Position numbers and translations under genes: made by a program
In this document: positions 2,521-31,079 of the stretch, piece after piece
Numbering within the stretch: the stretch's first letter is position 1
Layout: each line of letters opens with the position of its first letter
The notes under the pieces: model-generated
What the model was told of the DNA's origin: nothing
Database searches by the model: none
What the model saw: only the letters and a program-made list of their open reading frames with translations
From: Pseudomonas phage Pa_WF01
Direction: 5' to 3' (one strand)
Sequence record: OQ848593.1
Length of the DNA stretch: 64,000 nt

Positions 2521-5500
2521 ATGACTACCAAGGTGATCTTCACCTTCCATAACCCGGATGGCAGCCCACAGGCGAACGAGAAGTTCACCGTGCGACTGAC
2601 CCGTCCTGGCATGAGCGATGCAGAGCACTGCGTCGTAATTCCCGAAACCTACGAGATGGTGACCGACGCCAAGGGCGAGTTCACCATGGACTTGGAATCG
2701 TCTACCTCTGCCTACCGCGTCACTGCTATAGGCGATGACGACGAGTACGAGGACGATCCCTGCTCGCAGTACACCTTCACCTTCTACGTGCCGGACTCTG
2801 CTGATCCGGTCTACGTGCAGGAACTGATCCTGATGCCCCCGCCCACGAATCTGCCGTGGGACGAGGAAGCCATGAACAAGATCACCCAGGCTGTCGTCGA
2901 TGCCCGTGAGGCTCGTGACGAAGCTGAAGCTCAGGCTGACCGTGCTGAAGTGCAGGTAGATCTAGCCAAAGCCGAGGTCGTCAAAGCCCAGGATGAGGTA
3001 GTTAAAGCCAAAGCCGAGGTGACCAAGGCTCAGGCTGAAGTGACCAAAGCTGCTCAGCAAGTTGAGCTTGCGAAGGTCGAAGTGGGTAAGGCAGAAGCCT
3101 CTGCTGCTGCGGCCAAGGTCAGCGAGACCAATGCTGCGAATGCCGCTGCTGGTTCTGCCGCCTCGGCAACTGCTGCAACCAACCAAGCCAACCGTGCGAA
3201 GACGGAAGCTGATCGTGCCGAATCACTGGCAAACCAAGTCGCTGAAAAGGTGGAAGGCGGTAACCTGCCTGCACTGGTAGGGATGAACGAAACCTTCACC
3301 TACGAAGGTGGCGAGGACCACTACAACTGGACCCGTACTGGGCCAGTATCTGTGTCTCAGCACATTGGCTACATTCGGGTTGCTAAGACCGATGCCTCCA
3401 GTAACCGGGCTTTCATCCGCAAGTCTGCTGAGTTCCCGGATGGTCACTGGATCGCCTACTTCCGGGTGGCGACCCAGACGGGTACTGCTGACCAGAACCG
3501 TTCGGCACAGATCCGCTTTATCGCTGCCGACGGTAAGGACTACACGGTCTACTTCAACATTAATGCTAGTGGGGTGGTGGAACCGAACACCATCCACATG
3601 CAAGGTAGCGAAGGTAGTACCCGCAATGCTGCAACCATGTTCACTGGTTTGAATACCGAAACTTGGATGGACATGGCAGTAAAGTTCGATGCCGTGAACC
3701 GGCACATTGAACTCTTCCGTCGGATGCCCAATGGCACCTGGCAGAAGGGTGGTGGTCGCTTGATGGTGGATACGATCAAGCCCACGGTTATCGAGATTTC
3801 TTCCATGCCCGTCGCACCCAATGGGTGGTGGATGTATGTGGACTTCATCTCGGTTTGCCGACCTAACCTCATCTGCTACGGCGACAGCATTGCTGCTGGT
3901 CAGAACGAGTATGGGGTAACCCGAGGGAACAACCCCTACAACAACAACCGCAACTGGGCTGGTACCTGGTTCGGCAAGGTTCCGCTCTACGCCACGAACC
4001 GGAACAACCTGGTGCTTGTCCAGGGTGTGGAAGGCCGCCGTACCTGGCAGTACCTCAGCCAGTTGTCGGAGATCTCCAACTCTGGCGTGAAGGTAGTCTT
4101 CATGCATGCCAGCACGAATGACGTGAACGATGCCACCATGACCATGGCCAAGCGTACGTCTGACACCCAAGCCATCATCGACCAGCTTCATGCTGTCGGT
4201 GCTCAGGTGGTGCTGTTCAACTCCATGCAGGGTACCCAGGCGTACAACGATGCCTCGTCCAACACGGTCAAGCTGCGGGACTACACCGACCAGTGGTGGA
4301 ACACCGAACTACCCAAGGTCAATGGTTTGGCCCAGACCCTGGACATCGCCCGTCTCATCGCCAAGGACGGGTACATGGACCCGGATCTCGGTGCGAGTGA
4401 TGGTCTGCACCTGACCAATGCCTCGGCACAGAAAATCGCTGACAAGCTGGGACAGTTCTACTCGAACTCCACTTCCATCAATGGTTTGGCTCCGCTGGAA
4501 AGTCCTGCGTTTACCGGTATTCCTACCGTGCCTACGCAGACTCCTTTCCTGCCTTACGGCAAGCAGATCGCCAACACCGAGTACGTGATCACCTTCATTC
4601 AGGACTGGACCAGCAACTACGGTTACGGTGACCTAACGATACGTAGCAAAACTGGTGCTCAGCTGGCTGCCGGTGGTGTTCGCAGTGGTTATTACTACGT
4701 GCCAGGGGATGCTACTAACCCCTTGCCGGGGAATAATTATGCATTCGTGCACCACATGTCCTACGACACCAACAAGGGTTGGGAACTCTGGAACCACTGC
4801 TACACCGACCGTGTGTACATGCGTCATTCGAACAACCAGGGTGTCTGGCAAACTCCGGTGGAGTTGGTTACCGAGAATTGGATGGAGCGTAATAGCTTCA
4901 TGACCCCACGGGTTACCGCATTCAATCGACTGCCTGTGTTCAACGCTGCTGGATACGAAGGCTTTACTCCGGTGCAGAACTCTGCCAACGGTGGTTGGCG
5001 TAACGTGGCTACAGGTGCAGCTGGTATTGGACTACTTGGTGCGGCTACTGGGGCCAGTGCCTTGAACTACATCGGTGGCATGTCCAAGACTACTGCTAAT
5101 GGGCGAACTGCCAGCAACATGAACGACTTCCCTGATGAATGCGGGTTGTACGGTGTTGGTGTTGAGCCTTGGGCAAACCTACCTCCGGGTGTGGACCGCA
5201 TTAACCCGGTGGGTTCTTCTGTCTACCACCATGTGTATGACGCCAGCACTGCTACGCAGATCTTCATTCCGCGTACTTCGGATATCTGCTATTTCCGTCG
5301 TAAGTCTGGTGGTACCTGGCAGCCTTGGGTACGTTACCTGACCGACTTGCAGTTGGTGGGGACCACTACTGACGATACTGCGGGAAATCCGAACGGGGCC
5401 ATCATGCAGGTCAACGGCAGTGCCGCACTGAACGTCGGTGTTTGCACCCGTTTTGCGGATGGTACTCAAATTGTTCGGGCGTTACTCCAATTGGATTACG

Positions 5501-26672: not shown

Positions 26673-27674
26673 TCAAGACAGCGCATACTCGCTTTCACGG
26701 ATCAGTTCAGACAGGTTGTGGATCGACCGGTCGTAGCTGACATGGCTTCCAGTGATCTGGTGAACGATGTCGTCGAGGACGTTGCTGTCGGCCAGTTCGG
26801 CGAAGATGTTGATGTAGTGCTGGCGCATCTCGTTGCAGAAGTTCGGGTGGCACTTGAACTCATCGTGCACGGTGACCAGTTCGAAGGGTTCGTGGACCCG
26901 CATGGTGTCCCACAGGGCACACAGAGCTTCCAGGTGGTCAGTCTCCAGCTGACGCACGTTGACAGCGTTGATGTGGTTGAAGATCACTGCATCGACCATG
27001 TTGGTGCGGTCGTACAGGTCTTCGTAGACAGCCAGCTTGGCGTCCCTGGCGACCTCGGCTTCGCACTTGCCAGAGTGACGGTCCATCAGTTCACCCCAAA
27101 CCAACTGCATTACCTTGGTGATGGCTTCACGATCGTAGTTGCAACGACGGTGCATGGAACGAAGCACGTAGGCGTCGATGGAGTGGATGATGTTGGCAGC
27201 GTTCTTCACAGCACGCTCTACACCGCAGTCCTGCTTGTAGATGTACTCGAAGCTTGCACCATCCATCTCGTCCACTTCCACCCGAGTCTCGAACACGTCT
27301 ACCGACTTGACTATGGAGTGGAAGTTGTCCGGCAGCACCCAGGAGTGCTTCATGGCGTAGGGCTGCCAAGTGTTGATCAGGTCATCCCGCATCTCGTTGG
27401 CGATGGGAGCTACCATCTCCACGCCTTGGTAGAAGGCTTCCAGTTCAGGAGTGTCCTCACCGAACAGGTTCTTCGGCTCAGCCTTCGAGCCATAGAAGTG
27501 AGTCATGGTTGCAGTCTTGATGTCCGACCGCTTGATCTCCCCTACCGACTCACCCAGGTGGGTGGAGGCAGCAGTGGTGACCAGGCTGTAGGCATCCTGA
27601 CGGAAGCCAGTGTTGATGAGGTTGGTGGCTTGGGCACCAGATTCACAGCCACCCAGGGCCGACATTATCTGCAT
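26673..27674 (-). CDS. Exon 2 of the RNA polymerase II large subunit (T7-like single-subunit RNAP, N4 gp16-like). It carries motifs B and C; 333 codons.
   Basis: Motif B IKRSDIKTATMTHFYGS matches T7 RSVTKRSVMTLAYGS. Motif C VTVHDEFKCHP matches T7 LIHDSFGT. N-terminus MQIMSALGGCESGAQATNL matches T7 IQHFSAMLRDEVGGRAVNL. Confidence 0.8.
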   Translation of the reverse strand: MQIMSALGGCESGAQATNLINTGFRQDAYSLVTTAASTHLGESVGEIKRSDIKTATMTHFYGSKAEPKNLFGEDTPELEAFYQGVEMVAPIANEMRDDLINTWQPYAMKHSWVLPDNFHSIVKSVDVFETRVEVDEMDGASFEYIYKQDCGVERAVKNAANIIHSIDAYVLRSMHRRCNYDREAITKVMQLVWGELMDRHSGKCEAEVARDAKLAVYEDLYDRTNMVDAVIFNHINAVNVRQLETDHLEALCALWDTMRVHEPFELVTVHDEFKCHPNFCNEMRQHYINIFAELADSNVLDDIVHQITGSHVSYDRSIHNLSELIRESEYALS

Positions 27675-28674
27675 CGCTTGTTTTCACAGAAGGTCGTTAA
27701 TCTTCTGCCGTGTCAGCAGGACGTGGGAGATTTCCAAATATCCAACCTTTCAAAGGTTTCGTCGGTGCAGGTTTGTGCTGATTGCACTCCCGCATGCGAT
27801 TGGCTATTTGATGTTCCTTAAGTCCCAAAGTAGGTGCTACATCTTTCTTGGTTTGATCGTGGATTTCTACGTAAACCCCTTCTGGGGTCACGTAGTACCA
27901 AGGCTGGAATGCTGTATTTGAGGTACCAGCATGGCCCTTGTCTTTGCACTTAGTTCCACGAATCTTTTCAGCCGTCGCTGCATGAGCAACAATCATCGCT
28001 GGGGTGCGATTACCACTATAGCGACGGCTGAAAGTTTTACCTGCTTCAGTACGATCCACACTGATGCCTTTGTTCCAGCTGACGGAACCATGGCAGTCAT
28101 GCGTTGCAACACGCTGGTTGTACCAGTTGGGTGACGCAACACAGTTGTGTTCTTCGATGTAACTCCGTTCGAAGTCCATCAACTCTTGGCGAGTATTGAA
28201 GGTTCTCAAGATGGTTTTCACAGGCGGGTTGTCTTTTCGGTCCACCGGTAAGCCCCTACCAGATCCGAGATACGTGGTATCTAATTCTGGCGGTAGCTTG
28301 CACGAGCGGGCACCTATGTAGTACATCCCGTCTGCGAAAGTAAGCAAGTAAGCGTAGTGGTTCATGTGACCTCCTAGTTGTTCTGGAGTGCATATGTTAC
28401 CACGCCCTACTGACACTGCTGTGAATTTCTCCACAGGCAAGACTATATCTTCACCCCAGAAGGGTGCTTCCCATTTCCACCCACTTGGGTGTACGGCCTA
28501 AGCCTAGTCGTTGAACCTTCTCCCATACGGAGCTTGGCTGCTGATTGCCCAATCCACACACTTTTCAAACCTTCGCTTTGCCTTTCGGCTCGCAGTGGTA
28601 GCGTGGCTCTAAGGGGTTCCCAGCAATTAAGGAAGTGATCGACATGGATTGCTCCATGAAGGGGCTAGAAATCA
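27675..28674 (-). mobile_element. Group I (IA2-like) self-splicing intron, 1000 nt, with a GIY-YIG homing endonuclease ORF in its 3' region. It interrupts the RNAP II large-subunit gene at catalytic motif A.
   Basis: Minus-strand conserved elements: P AATTGCTGGGAAC (about 28611-28632); Q AATCAGCAGC (28538-28547); R GTTCAACGACTAG (28504-28516); S AAGATATAGTC (28441-28451). Exon 1 ends ...GGU and the internal guide GCCC lies at 28661-28666. An in-frame UGA is the first intron codon, and omega-G precedes the exon 2 AUG. Confidence 0.75.
27697..28365 (-). CDS. GIY-YIG homing endonuclease (222 aa) encoded within the intron.
   Basis: HYAYLLTFADGMYYIGARS (GIY-YIG); RSYIEEHNC. SD AGGAGG 4 nt before the ATG at 28365. 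AT-richer than the flanking exons. Confidence 0.8.
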   Translation of the reverse strand: MNHYAYLLTFADGMYYIGARSCKLPPELDTTYLGSGRGLPVDRKDNPPVKTILRTFNTRQELMDFERSYIEEHNCVASPNWYNQRVATHDCHGSVSWNKGISVDRTEAGKTFSRRYSGNRTPAMIVAHAATAEKIRGTKCKDKGHAGTSNTAFQPWYYVTPEGVYVEIHDQTKKDVAPTLGLKEHQIANRMRECNQHKPAPTKPLKGWIFGNLPRPADTAED

Positions 28675-28914
28675 ACCCGAGCAGCAGGCATCCAGCCCTA
28701 CGAGGTGGCCAACAGGCTCACCACGCTGAGCAGCACGGATGGCCATGACAGCCTTGAGGTACTGCGGTCGAGTCTTCTCGTTGCACTCCAGATTCTCCAG
28801 GTTGTCGAAGTTGTCGTAGCACCATTGGATGCGCTGTTCGAAGAGCCATTTGTCATGGCCCATTTGGTTTGCAGCGTCGATCAGAAGGTATTCGAAAGCG
28901 GTGTAAGGGGTCAT
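28675..28914 (-). CDS. Exon 1 of the RNA polymerase II large subunit (80 codons), ending at motif A.
   Basis: PYTAFEYLLIDA matches T7 PFCFLAFCFEYA. C-terminal VGLDACCSG matches T7 LAFDGSCSG (catalytic Asp of motif A). The following codon is an in-frame TGA inside the intron. Confidence 0.75.
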
Positions 28915-28948: not shown

Positions 28949-29233
28949 CTAGAGGCCGTATACGGTCAACAGTGCTTGAAGTTCTTTAGGTATATCTTGG
29001 GTATACACCACAGGTGTAAGGTTCCCGGAATTGTCATCAGGTCCAAAGTAGAACCAGTAAGTAGTACTTCCATACTGCACAGACAGTCTGAGTAACACTA
29101 ATTCACGCTTCAATTCTCCTTTCAGGTTGGCTTGATAGTGTGCTTGGTCTGACACTAGCCTGCTGTTTTCATCCGCGAACAGCTGCCACTCACCTTCCAC
29201 GGTCCAAGCTGCTATGTTCAATGGTTTGCTCAT
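28949..29233 (-). CDS. Hypothetical small protein (94 aa) in an AT-rich island.
   Basis: Low third-position GC; sits between the RNAP II subunit genes. Confidence 0.45.
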   Translation of the reverse strand: MSKPLNIAAWTVEGEWQLFADENSRLVSDQAHYQANLKGELKRELVLLRLSVQYGSTTYWFYFGPDDNSGNLTPVVYTQDIPKELQALLTVYGL

Positions 29234-29507
29234 CGAGATCTATACCCCATATAACAGCCATGCCTATTAATACAGCCGGCGGTTTGGTTAGCCTACTCCA
29301 GTCACTGATGTAAGTACCACCGCCTTTTACTTTGGTGGCCCACTTATACCTGAAAGAGCCTTTGTCACTGATGTAGCGGACTACCTTATTACCCTTTTCT
29401 ATGTGCTGTATGGTTGCTTTCTCCCATGCTTGTTCTTTGTATCTTGAATCTGAGTACTCTTCGTAGTTCCAGCAATCACCGTCATGAATGAACAGGTACA
29501 CAGCCAT
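29190..29507 (-). CDS. Hypothetical small protein (105 aa) in an AT-rich island. Its C-terminus (VIWGIDLD) is related to the next ORF (IIWGLD).
   Basis: SD GAGGT before the ATG at 29507; low third-position GC. Confidence 0.5.
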   Translation of the reverse strand: MAVYLFIHDGDCWNYEEYSDSRYKEQAWEKATIQHIEKGNKVVRYISDKGSFRYKWATKVKGGGTYISDWSRLTKPPAVLIGMAVIWGIDLDEQTIEHSSLDRGR

Positions 29508-29512
29508 CGGTT

Positions 29513-29788
29513 TTACCTCAGTAGTCTATCGAGTCCCCAGATTATTATCATTGCCTTGAGTTCTTCTGGTAGTTCATGGAAGCTTTCAAGCTTGTTCCTT
29601 TCAGTCATCGTAACCTTGTACCAGCTATTAGAAGCCAAGTAATTGAAGGTTATACAGTTATATCTTCGATCTTCTTTGGTTGGATCAATGAAATCCCCAA
29701 CCAGATCCAATATCGAACTGTGAACCGTGTAGGCCCAAATACCGTCCTTCTCCTGAAACGAATAGTGTGACATTAATAACTCCTTCAT
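29513..29788 (-). CDS. Hypothetical small protein (91 aa) in an AT-rich island.
   Basis: ATGA overlap with the RNAP II small-subunit stop; low third-position GC. Confidence 0.5.
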   Translation of the reverse strand: MKELLMSHYSFQEKDGIWAYTVHSSILDLVGDFIDPTKEDRRYNCITFNYLASNSWYKVTMTERNKLESFHELPEELKAMIIIWGLDRLLR

Positions 29789-30717
29789 TTGATCTTCAAG
29801 TGTTCGGGTACACCAGTGACTACCTTCTTGTTGGCCAAGTCGAGCATGGCTTTCTTGTAAGGAGACCCCTGGGTACTGATGTGGTAGCCCTGTGCATACA
29901 CACGACCGCGCTTGTCGTACTTGTGCAGGAGATAGAACCGATTACCTTGCTGAACCATAAGCTTGTACATCTCATGCGACTCAGAGACGAACCTGTACCA
30001 GTCGTCTTTCTTGTCCTGCGTATCCAAGTACTTGTGGGACTCTTCTTCTACGGTGCTCAAGAACTCAGTGTTCAGGCACAACTCAACAGCGTTCATCTTG
30101 TCCAGCACATCGAGACAGATGTCTTCGTTGTGGTGGTTGTTGTTCAGGATAAGGGATTCCTTCTCCAGAGTAAGATGAAGTTTCGACTTGTTCCCAGTGA
30201 GCTTGGATGGTTTGCACACCATAGGAGGAAGGTACATAGCTCGCTCAACAGCATGTTGAAGCTTCTCCGGTAGTTGAATGTTAGAGATGACCTTGTATGT
30301 ACCATACTTGGACACCTGCTCAATGTCGTACACGTCAAGCTCAGCCAGCACTGCAACCATCTCAGCGATGGTCTTGATGCTGTCAGCCTTGTCGTCGAAG
30401 CCAAGTACACCAGCTAGCTTGGCTGTGAAGCTGATGAACATGTCCGGTACCTGACAGTACGCAGACGCTACGATAATCTCGAACACAATGTGCTCAAGGT
30501 CCAGGTTACGAACAGTCTCCATACGAAGGTTCTTGGAGGCATAGCTGTACTCAGTGGTGCGATACTTCTCCAACAGTGCTATTCCCTGCTCCATCAGTGC
30601 AGGAAGGTCTTCGTCACCGCGAATGAACTCACGGATGTACCCGTCAATGTGCGCCCGAGCAAAGCGGTACTCATTGGCGCGTTGCATATCTTCGGGCAGC
30701 ATGTGGGTAATGGTCAT
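29785..30717 (-). CDS. RNA polymerase II small subunit (N4 gp15-like; N-terminal half of the T7-like RNAP core, about 310 aa).
   Basis: HKYDKRGRVYAQGYHISTQGSPYKKAMLDLA matches T7 DSRGRAYAVSMFNPQGNDMTKGLLTLA (DxxGR). ATG at 30717 with an SD overlapping the upstream stop; the track ORF extends to 30816. Confidence 0.75.
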   Translation of the reverse strand: MTITHMLPEDMQRANEYRFARAHIDGYIREFIRGDEDLPALMEQGIALLEKYRTTEYSYASKNLRMETVRNLDLEHIVFEIIVASAYCQVPDMFISFTAKLAGVLGFDDKADSIKTIAEMVAVLAELDVYDIEQVSKYGTYKVISNIQLPEKLQHAVERAMYLPPMVCKPSKLTGNKSKLHLTLEKESLILNNNHHNEDICLDVLDKMNAVELCLNTEFLSTVEEESHKYLDTQDKKDDWYRFVSESHEMYKLMVQQGNRFYLLHKYDKRGRVYAQGYHISTQGSPYKKAMLDLANKKVVTGVPEHLKIK

Positions 30718-30728
30718 GGAACGATTCC

Positions 30729-31079
30729 TTAATCGAACAGAAGTGATTGGGCGATGATCTCTCGTGGCACTAGCTTCTCTGAAATAGGTGAGAAGAGTCC
30801 GTTGTAGCCGTGCCACTGGCCTTTGTACTTGACGTAGACCTGGGTGAACGGATCAATGTAGCTCCTGATACGGGTATGTATGATCCCAGTAGCCACATTG
30901 ATCATCTCTTTACGGGTCACCTTCTCTGTCAGACCATCAAAGATGTACAGGAAGGTCTCTCCCTTCTGTAGGGACAATTGCACCGACATGGTTCTGTAGT
31001 TGTCCGCTAGTTTTTGCTCCATCTTCTGCATGTCGATGGTGACTTTCTGCGATCCTCGTAGACCCTTCTCTACTCTCAT
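30729..31079 (-). CDS. Hypothetical protein (116 aa).
   Basis: ATG at 31079 with SD GAAGGAG (8-nt spacer). Confidence 0.5.
   Translation of the reverse strand: MRVEKGLRGSQKVTIDMQKMEQKLADNYRTMSVQLSLQKGETFLYIFDGLTEKVTRKEMINVATGIIHTRIRSYIDPFTQVYVKYKGQWHGYNGLFSPISEKLVPREIIAQSLLFD

Follow-up and report, generated by a model that had tools for sequence, protein, structure and literature searches.

A probable mobile group I intron with a GIY-YIG endonuclease reading frame at motif A of the RNAP2 gene of Pseudomonas phage Pa_WF01

The td/I-TevI and sunY (nrdD)/I-TevII introns of phage T4 combine a group I ribozyme with a GIY-YIG endonuclease within genes of nucleotide metabolism, and both splicing and cleavage have been demonstrated for them. 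Here we describe an element of the same composition, known from its sequence alone, in a 64,000-nt stretch of Pseudomonas phage Pa_WF01 (OQ848593.1; hereafter the window), where it interrupts an RNA polymerase gene. The gene is RNAP2, which encodes the gp16-like large subunit of the middle-gene RNA polymerase of Litunavirus phages, and the insert is very probably a group I intron of IA type, mobile and self-splicing, which has P7.1 and P7.2 elements and would work in a manner similar to its T4 counterparts. It differs from them in that the last codons and the stop of its open reading frame (ORF) belong to two covarying RNA helices, and I-TevI has no detectable sequence similarity to the product of that ORF.

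Pseudomonas phage ΦPA3 also carries a group I intron with a homing endonuclease, gp210, in an RNA polymerase gene and beside conserved Asp residues; this intron has been studied experimentally and shown to confer a competitive advantage (Birkholz et al. 2024, PMC11620839). Its target is the β subunit of a multisubunit polymerase and its enzyme a nicking HNH endonuclease, whereas the window intron combines a polymerase of the single-subunit (T7/N4-type) family with a GIY-YIG protein. Within RNAP2 itself, a 2017 paper on the N4-like Pseudomonas phage ZC08 (Amgarten et al., PMC5418858) reported a 'homing endonuclease insertion' without calling it a group I intron. The ZC08 insertion (KU356691, L031:3704-4671) is a group I intron, with an Rfam match of 88.9 bits at 3704-3969. 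It stands directly after ...KSVHD, which ends in the motif C Asp, and carries an HNH ORF (ZC08_055), and so differs from the window intron in site (motif C rather than motif A) and in endonuclease class. A td-gene intron of another N4-like phage, identified through Rfam RF00028, is likewise a group I intron with an endonuclease, but its host gene is td and its enzyme HNH. The 'genes in pieces' arrangement of Aeh1 nrdA, which has no ribozyme and in which each half has its own translation signals, is not what we find, as the ribozyme in the window is present and conserved. A literature search returned no paper describing the motif A intron of the window; as far as such searches show, no group I intron family had previously been described in an RNA polymerase gene of the single-subunit type (T7/N4 family). 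The novelty claimed in an earlier note on this DNA holds to that extent and was otherwise partly overstated, given that the YH6 sequence (KM974184) was already public and that ZC08 (PMC5418858) and ΦPA3 (PMC11620839) provide precedents.

The two RNAP2 ORFs, like every feature discussed here, lie on the minus strand. They are found where the earlier note had placed them, the 80-codon ORF being followed immediately by an in-frame TGA (UGA is the first intron triplet), and they are two consecutive parts of one polymerase as it had proposed. On the RNA polymerase profile phrog_2051 they cover positions 1-80 and 81-401, and on the T7-type profile phrog_414 they match positions 426-515 and 516-596. 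In the intron-less phage PASB7 the gene is one uninterrupted frame of 413 amino acids, and its alignment with the window leaves a single 1000-nt gap (28674..27675) at ...CTCGGG(T/C)|ATGCAG..., between Gly80 and Met81. Removal of the insert restores the PASB7-type reading frame exactly, with a predicted junction peptide DACCSGMQIMSALGG (the corresponding intron-less target in PASB7 and PEV2 is GCTGCTCGGGCATGCAGATC), and the joined product of 413 residues is collinear with N4 gp16. This joined protein aligns end to end with the N4 RNAP2 structure 6dt7_B (E 2.4e-57, residues 2-413 against 2-404), where the junction falls at LDATSSG|LQIL. The match to T7 RNAP is weak (1cez_A 535-582, E 0.09). It places D75 at T7 residue 537, the catalytic Asp of motif A, and G80|M81 at G542|I543; a match to mitochondrial RNAP (E 0.012) aligns D75 with the DGSCNG motif of that enzyme. 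The intron thus lies five codons past the motif A Asp and inside the conserved motif A block, which qualifies the wording of the earlier note that the gene is split exactly at the catalytic motif. Near the junction, only one base distinguishes all intron-plus from all intron-minus alleles: the final one of exon 1, which is T where the intron is present and C where it is absent. The codon is GGT in 7/7 intron-plus and GGC in 5/5 intron-minus alleles, and both encode Gly.

The insert bears a clear group I signature. The Rfam model RF00028 matches 28684..28419 with 82.5 bits (gathering threshold 50; E 1.8e-19) over model positions 1-253 of 253. This is the single Rfam match in the whole window, and the intron-less allele has no Rfam group I match. 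The P, Q, R and S strings that the earlier note had recognised in the intervening 1000 nt are present on the transcribed strand at 28628..28616, 28546..28537, 28516..28504 and 28451..28441, respectively; so are the GCCC guide facing the exon end GGGU, and the G that precedes the exon 2 AUG. The minimum-free-energy (MFE) fold recovers all non-pseudoknotted core helices. P7.1 and P7.2 are peripheral elements typical of group I subgroup IA. The names P9.1, for a long-range helix that loops out the endonuclease ORF between P9 and the 3' end, and P9.2, for the 3' hairpin, were coined in this analysis. The features of the locus are collected in Table 1.

Table 1. Coordinates of the RNAP2 exons, the intron and its RNA elements, the intron ORF and the neighbouring polymerase gene in the window.
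Feature	Position	Strand	Basis
RNAP2 (N4 gp16-like) exon 1, 80 codons, ends ...VGLDACCSG, holds motif A Asp D75	28675..28914	minus	ORF list; phrog_2051 positions 1-80; 6dt7_B and T7 alignments
RNAP2 exon 2, 333 codons and stop, starts MQIMSALGG	26673..27674	minus	ORF list; PHROG profiles; PASB7 and 6dt7_B alignments
Group I intron, 1000 nt, starts UGA..., ends ...AAGCG	27675..28674	minus	Rfam RF00028; exact gap against PASB7
P1: exon GGGU and intron UG with internal guide UAGCCC (28667..28662); U·G at the 5' splice site	28662..28678	minus	sequence; covariation
P2 hairpin, GCAA (GNRA) tetraloop	28643..28658	minus	covariation
P3 5' strand (28635..28630), J3/4, P4 5' strand and J4/5; P element AATTGCTGGGAAC	28616..28635	minus	covariation
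P5 and long P5 extension, then P4 3' strand; Q element AATCAGCAGC	28537..28615	minus	covariation; MFE fold gives P4 and P5
P6/P6a hairpin, J6/7, P7 5' strand; R element GTTCAACGACTAG	28504..28538	minus	compensatory changes
P7.1 and P7.2 hairpins (P7.2 loop AAGU)	28478..28504	minus	P7.2 covariation; MFE fold
P3 3' strand (28472..28467), P8 hairpin (28466..28452), J8/7 and P7 3' strand; S element AAGATATAGTC	28441..28472	minus	covariation
J7/9 (last two nt, GC, form a P9.0 strand), then P9 hairpin, GAAA tetraloop	28419..28440	minus	covariation
Long-range helix P9.1, 5' strand GUGUCAGUAGGGCG	28403..28416	minus	14-bp duplex with 27723..27710
Long-range helix P9.1, 3' strand CGUCCUGCUGACAC, inside the last endonuclease codons	27710..27723	minus	cognate-pair comparison
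3'-terminal hairpin P9.2, GCAGAAG/CUUCUGU, ORF UAA stop in the loop; AUUAACGAC	27686..27708	minus	covariation
3' tail GAAAACAAGCG: GC of P9.0, then terminal G (omega-G) at the 3' splice site	27675..27685	minus	PASB7 gap; P9.0 test
Intron ORF, 222 aa: predicted N-terminal GIY-YIG nuclease domain and C-terminal DNA-binding region	27697..28365	minus	
Shine-Dalgarno AGGAGG of the endonuclease ORF; predicted pairing with an upstream CUCC stretch	28370..28375	minus	sequence
RNAP1 subunit gene (N4 gp15-like)	29785..30816	minus	phrog_2166 N4-like RNA polymerase, E 5e-132; annotation of relatives

Comparative evidence comes from 13 distinct diverged copies, from phages and metagenomes, whose DNA was fetched around a sample of the 78 endonuclease homologs found in public data. 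The sampled copies share a common layout of an exon-1 ORF of about 80-110 codons, a ribozyme of about 300 nt, an endonuclease ORF of about 213-245 codons and exon 2. A group I match of 74.8-91.4 bits follows exon 1 directly in 9/10 of the first endonuclease-bearing loci, and five more loci from IMG/VR score 74.8-97.6 bits; the tenth locus, L012, reaches 40.6 bits only. Its motif A intron (L012:2284-3720; Logan ERR4682353_521488) holds two endonuclease ORFs and its Rfam match spans 658 nt, with an HNH_3 ORF (2435-2842) that begins within the P5/P4 3' strand and occupies the P6 loop, and a GIY-YIG ORF (3001-3663) in the 3' loop.

Across the 13 copies, the structure including the long-range helix is paired in 91.1% of cells, and 33 of its 43 pairs vary on both sides. 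None of 500 shuffled controls reached the observed pairing and covariation values, and sliding the partner columns by 1-3 positions lowered pairing to 36-49%. P2 is paired in 98.7% of cells with 6/6 pairs changed on both sides, P3 in 98.7% with 5/6 pairs compensatory, P8 in 98.5% and P9 in 100% with 5/7 pairs compensatory. MAFFT misaligned the middle of these mini-introns owing to P5 and P7.1/P7.2 insertions that vary from copy to copy; P4 to P7 were scored in anchored registers. Scored in this way, P4 has three sequence variants and is fully paired in each of the 13 copies, P6 is paired in 39/39 cells with compensatory changes, P7 at 65/65 with the compensatory variants GACUA/UAGUC, GACCA/UGGUC and GAUCA/UGAUC, and P7.2 at 35/35 with five stem variants. 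The pseudoknotted P3/P7 core, from P3 to P9, is therefore supported by compensatory changes.

The 3' part of the intron is structured as well. The long-range helix, assessed by comparing cognate with non-cognate strand pairs, is 14 bp long in the window, and over the copies cognate pairs form 8.6 bp on average and non-cognate pairs 5.0 bp; in phage PAP02 an 11-bp helix of unrelated sequence occupies the same place. The 3' hairpin P9.2 is 96.2% paired, and 6/6 of its pairs have changed on both sides. In most copies the ORF closes within these elements, its last codons supplying the 3' strand of P9.1 and its UAA stop falling in the loop of hairpin P9.2. As this hairpin sits after the stop codon in copies with a shorter ORF, P9.1 and P9.2 are RNA elements and no by-product of coding.

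Pairings that define the splice sites are conserved in the same way. P1 is 92% paired, with the U·G pair at the 5' splice site in 13/13 copies, while P9.0, formed by the two bases before the terminal G and the last two of J7/9, is paired in 24/26 cells against 5-14/26 in slid registers. The terminal base of the intron is G in 13/13 copies. Conservation of P1 and P9.0 across the copies indicates that both splice sites are under structural selection, and no other available argument for splicing is as strong. Two copies have a displaced 5' splice site, lying 5 nt upstream in one (L011:2695; ...GCGU|, splitting a Ser codon) and 1 nt downstream in the codon frame in the other (L026:1716; GGG U|UA), and both keep the P1 pairing and the terminal G.

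These features suggest a mechanism in which the gene is transcribed as one pre-mRNA whose ribozyme folds from P1 to P9. P1 would offer the exon-1 end GGGU to the guide GCCC, with the U·G wobble marking the point after which an external guanosine attacks, and P9.1, P9.2 and the two-base P9.0 would bring the terminal G and exon 2 to the core. Exon ligation would then restore ...S79-G80|M81-Q82..., five residues past the motif A Asp. Without splicing, ribosomes would terminate at the UGA with which the intron begins. As exon 2 also lacks a ribosome-binding site of its own, it is a sound inference that a functional polymerase depends on splicing. At the DNA level, the intron-less allele of co-infecting relatives (...CTCGGGC|ATGCAG...) is presumably the substrate of the endonuclease, and repair from the intron-bearing genome would copy in the intron along with the synonymous C-to-T exchange by which the splice-site U arises.

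The intron ORF probably encodes a GIY-YIG homing endonuclease. Its product matches the PHROG homing-endonuclease family (E 4.6e-13), and its structural model has the alpha/beta catalytic fold of GIY-YIG nucleases. At E up to 0.01, 11/38 homologs match Pfam GIY-YIG and 6/38 SegE_GIY-YIG (best E 1.1e-6). The family alignment reads HYxYLL...YIGxRS, with Y16, E66, N83 and R59 invariant and Y4 and Y6 nearly so, and every copy has an intact ORF. Most copies also share a predicted hairpin that covers the Shine-Dalgarno sequence and may limit translation of the endonuclease. Together with the covariance-model match, the intron-less allele and the covariation, the protein fold bears out the proposal of the earlier note that the RNAP2 gene is interrupted by a group I intron with a GIY-YIG ORF; cleavage and the target site given above are predictions.

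Several results weigh against a mobile self-splicing intron. The window protein scores 12.5 bits against Pfam GIY-YIG, below the threshold of 22.6 (E 0.19); it has no match among the sequences of solved structures in the PDB, and a Foldseek search of the PDB with the whole model gave nothing significant. NCBIfam also yields no match to this protein. The thermodynamic z-score of the ribozyme is -1.1 and not significant, so thermodynamics alone was not used as evidence. Inspection, which involved no formal test, revealed no convincing P10 helix joining the guide region to exon 2. Finally, intron-plus phages differ from one another as much in the exon sequence beside the junction as in the rest of the gene, from which it follows that any co-conversion tract is very short or already eroded.

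The low Pfam score and the lack of a clear co-conversion tract would be expected if the intron were competent to splice but its endonuclease had decayed, leaving the element at a late stage of the homing cycle with vertical inheritance only. We consider this unlikely on several grounds. The reading frame is intact in every copy and belongs to a family of 78 homologs with invariant Tyr, Glu and Asn. Among six Litunavirus genomes (the window, VL1, YH6, LP14, FBPa1 and phPLST) the intron is 99.2-99.8% identical against 91.7-97.2% for the RNAP2 exons, so that it is about 10x less diverged than the sequence flanking it. Two distinct intron lineages occupy near-identical host genes, as PAP02 shares 94% identity with the window in RNAP2, yet only 70% in the intron and 69% in the endonuclease. 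In the metagenomic copies the endonuclease is 46-60% identical to that of the window against 30-47% for RNAP2, and is thus conserved more than the host polymerase. Intact frame, low intron divergence, paired lineages and endonuclease conservation are marks of ongoing horizontal spread and purifying selection, and the identity patterns fit recent and repeated homing.

Close homologs of the endonuclease were found in only six Litunavirus isolates among 50,697 phage records, and remote partial matches (29-36% identity) in the Alteromonas phage AD45 and the Vibrio phages VBP32 and VBP47. RNAP2 homologs were present in 468 phage records, 451 of which have the gene at a single place that spans at least 80% of the query. 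The intron family occurs widely among uncultured N4-like phages, and one carrier has an RNAP2 76% identical to N4 gp16. A second group I intron is present in one metagenomic copy (L009:4178-5270; ENA ERZ19567310 scaffold_236), with an Rfam match of 66.5 bits at 4178-4440 and an ORF of 233 aa at 4517-5218. It splits RNAP2 exon 2 just ahead of a conserved ...H-S-I-D... motif (AANIIHSIDAY in the window), and the L009 gene therefore carries two introns at two conserved motifs. Group I introns are thus found in RNAP2 at three separate conserved motifs: motif A in the window family, ...HSID... in L009 and motif C in ZC08. Considered with these introns, L008:1561-2070 and L011:1859-2365 mark the region from RNAP1 to RNAP2 as a hotspot of homing endonuclease genes.

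A different explanation dispenses with splicing and regards the locus as a split gene, the pieces of 80 and 333 aa being translated separately and assembling in trans as gp15 and gp16 do, with the ribozyme as a non-functional relic. N4 RNAPII is itself a two-piece T7-type polymerase (PMC5418858), exon 2 of the window happens to start with ATG, and public databases treat the pieces as separate genes. In the annotations of VL1, YH6, LP14, FBPa1, phPLST and PAP02, two RNAP2 fragments accompany a hypothetical protein or an endonuclease; three RNA polymerase genes are counted in the VL1 paper, which leaves the intron unmentioned (PMC9729221). Against this stands the strong structural selection on the ribozyme in 13 diverged copies, which extends to the P1 and P9.0 pairings that define the splice sites. 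There is no Shine-Dalgarno sequence upstream of exon 2 in the window, and its ATG is merely Met81 of the uninterrupted PASB7 protein. The first exon-2 codon of several relatives is ACT, CTA, CCA or ATA, none of which is a start, so that for these relatives, as judged from their sequences, the split-gene explanation is excluded. Separate translation would also part the motif A Asp from the remaining palm domain. We therefore regard separate translation of the pieces as very unlikely in the window. An intein or other in-frame protein-level insertion, for which one might cite that homing endonucleases also occur in inteins and that polymerase active sites are common intein sites (mentioned in PMC5418858), is excluded by the sequence, as the insert opens with an in-frame UGA, the endonuclease frame begins with a start codon and Shine-Dalgarno sequence of its own, and the first ~260 nt match the ribozyme model.

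Over about 5 kb around the locus the window is 92-96% identical to N4-like Litunavirus phages of P. aeruginosa, the nearest being VL1, YH6, LP14, FBPa1, phPLST and PASB7, and none is identical. The RNAP1 gene lies upstream of RNAP2 with three small ORFs between them. The small ORFs of this interval (28949..29788) vary in number and content among the 92-96% identical genomes, which probably accounts for part of the uncovered query in the 5-kb comparison. Within exon 2, a stretch at about 26775..26894 (spliced nt 781-900; protein region GKCEAEVARDAK) is hypervariable among Litunavirus genomes, with pairwise differences of up to 15-18% per 60 nt against 1-7% in the rest of the gene. The linear PAP02 record (NC_070864, L004 3496-4269) terminates within RNAP2 exon 2, which explains why exon 2 is annotated there as a misc_feature only and the gene looks truncated. 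PJNP053 (OR941788, L028:301-2262) was considered as a further split RNAP2 and rejected, as GFP (MVSKGEELFTG...) has been engineered in frame into its RNAP2; the 653-aa 'RNA polymerase' coding sequence is that of an engineered reporter phage, which the annotation does not make evident.

The locus is best annotated as one polymerase gene with a self-splicing intron instead of as split genes. The element is genuine but of a textbook type; it is of some interest to the study of how phages compete and how N4-type polymerases have evolved. The intron would make middle transcription of the phage depend on RNA splicing, and the window family, ZC08 and L009 together indicate repeated colonisation of the catalytic motifs of one gene. 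By analogy, and tentatively, the endonuclease might also serve as a weapon among co-infecting Litunavirus phages, cutting the RNAP2 motif A sequence of intron-less phages such as PEV2, PASB7 and Pa2. Cutting could knock out the middle transcription of rivals or exclude their markers, in the way that ΦKZ is affected by the gp210 endonuclease of ΦPA3, and the presence of introns at three conserved motifs lends some support to the idea of RNAP2 in N4-like phages as a recurrent battlefield. Therapy cocktails include Litunavirus phages. If the homing endonuclease is active, it could skew the results of co-infections, and should it act in competition, this could matter where several Litunavirus phages are combined for treatment.

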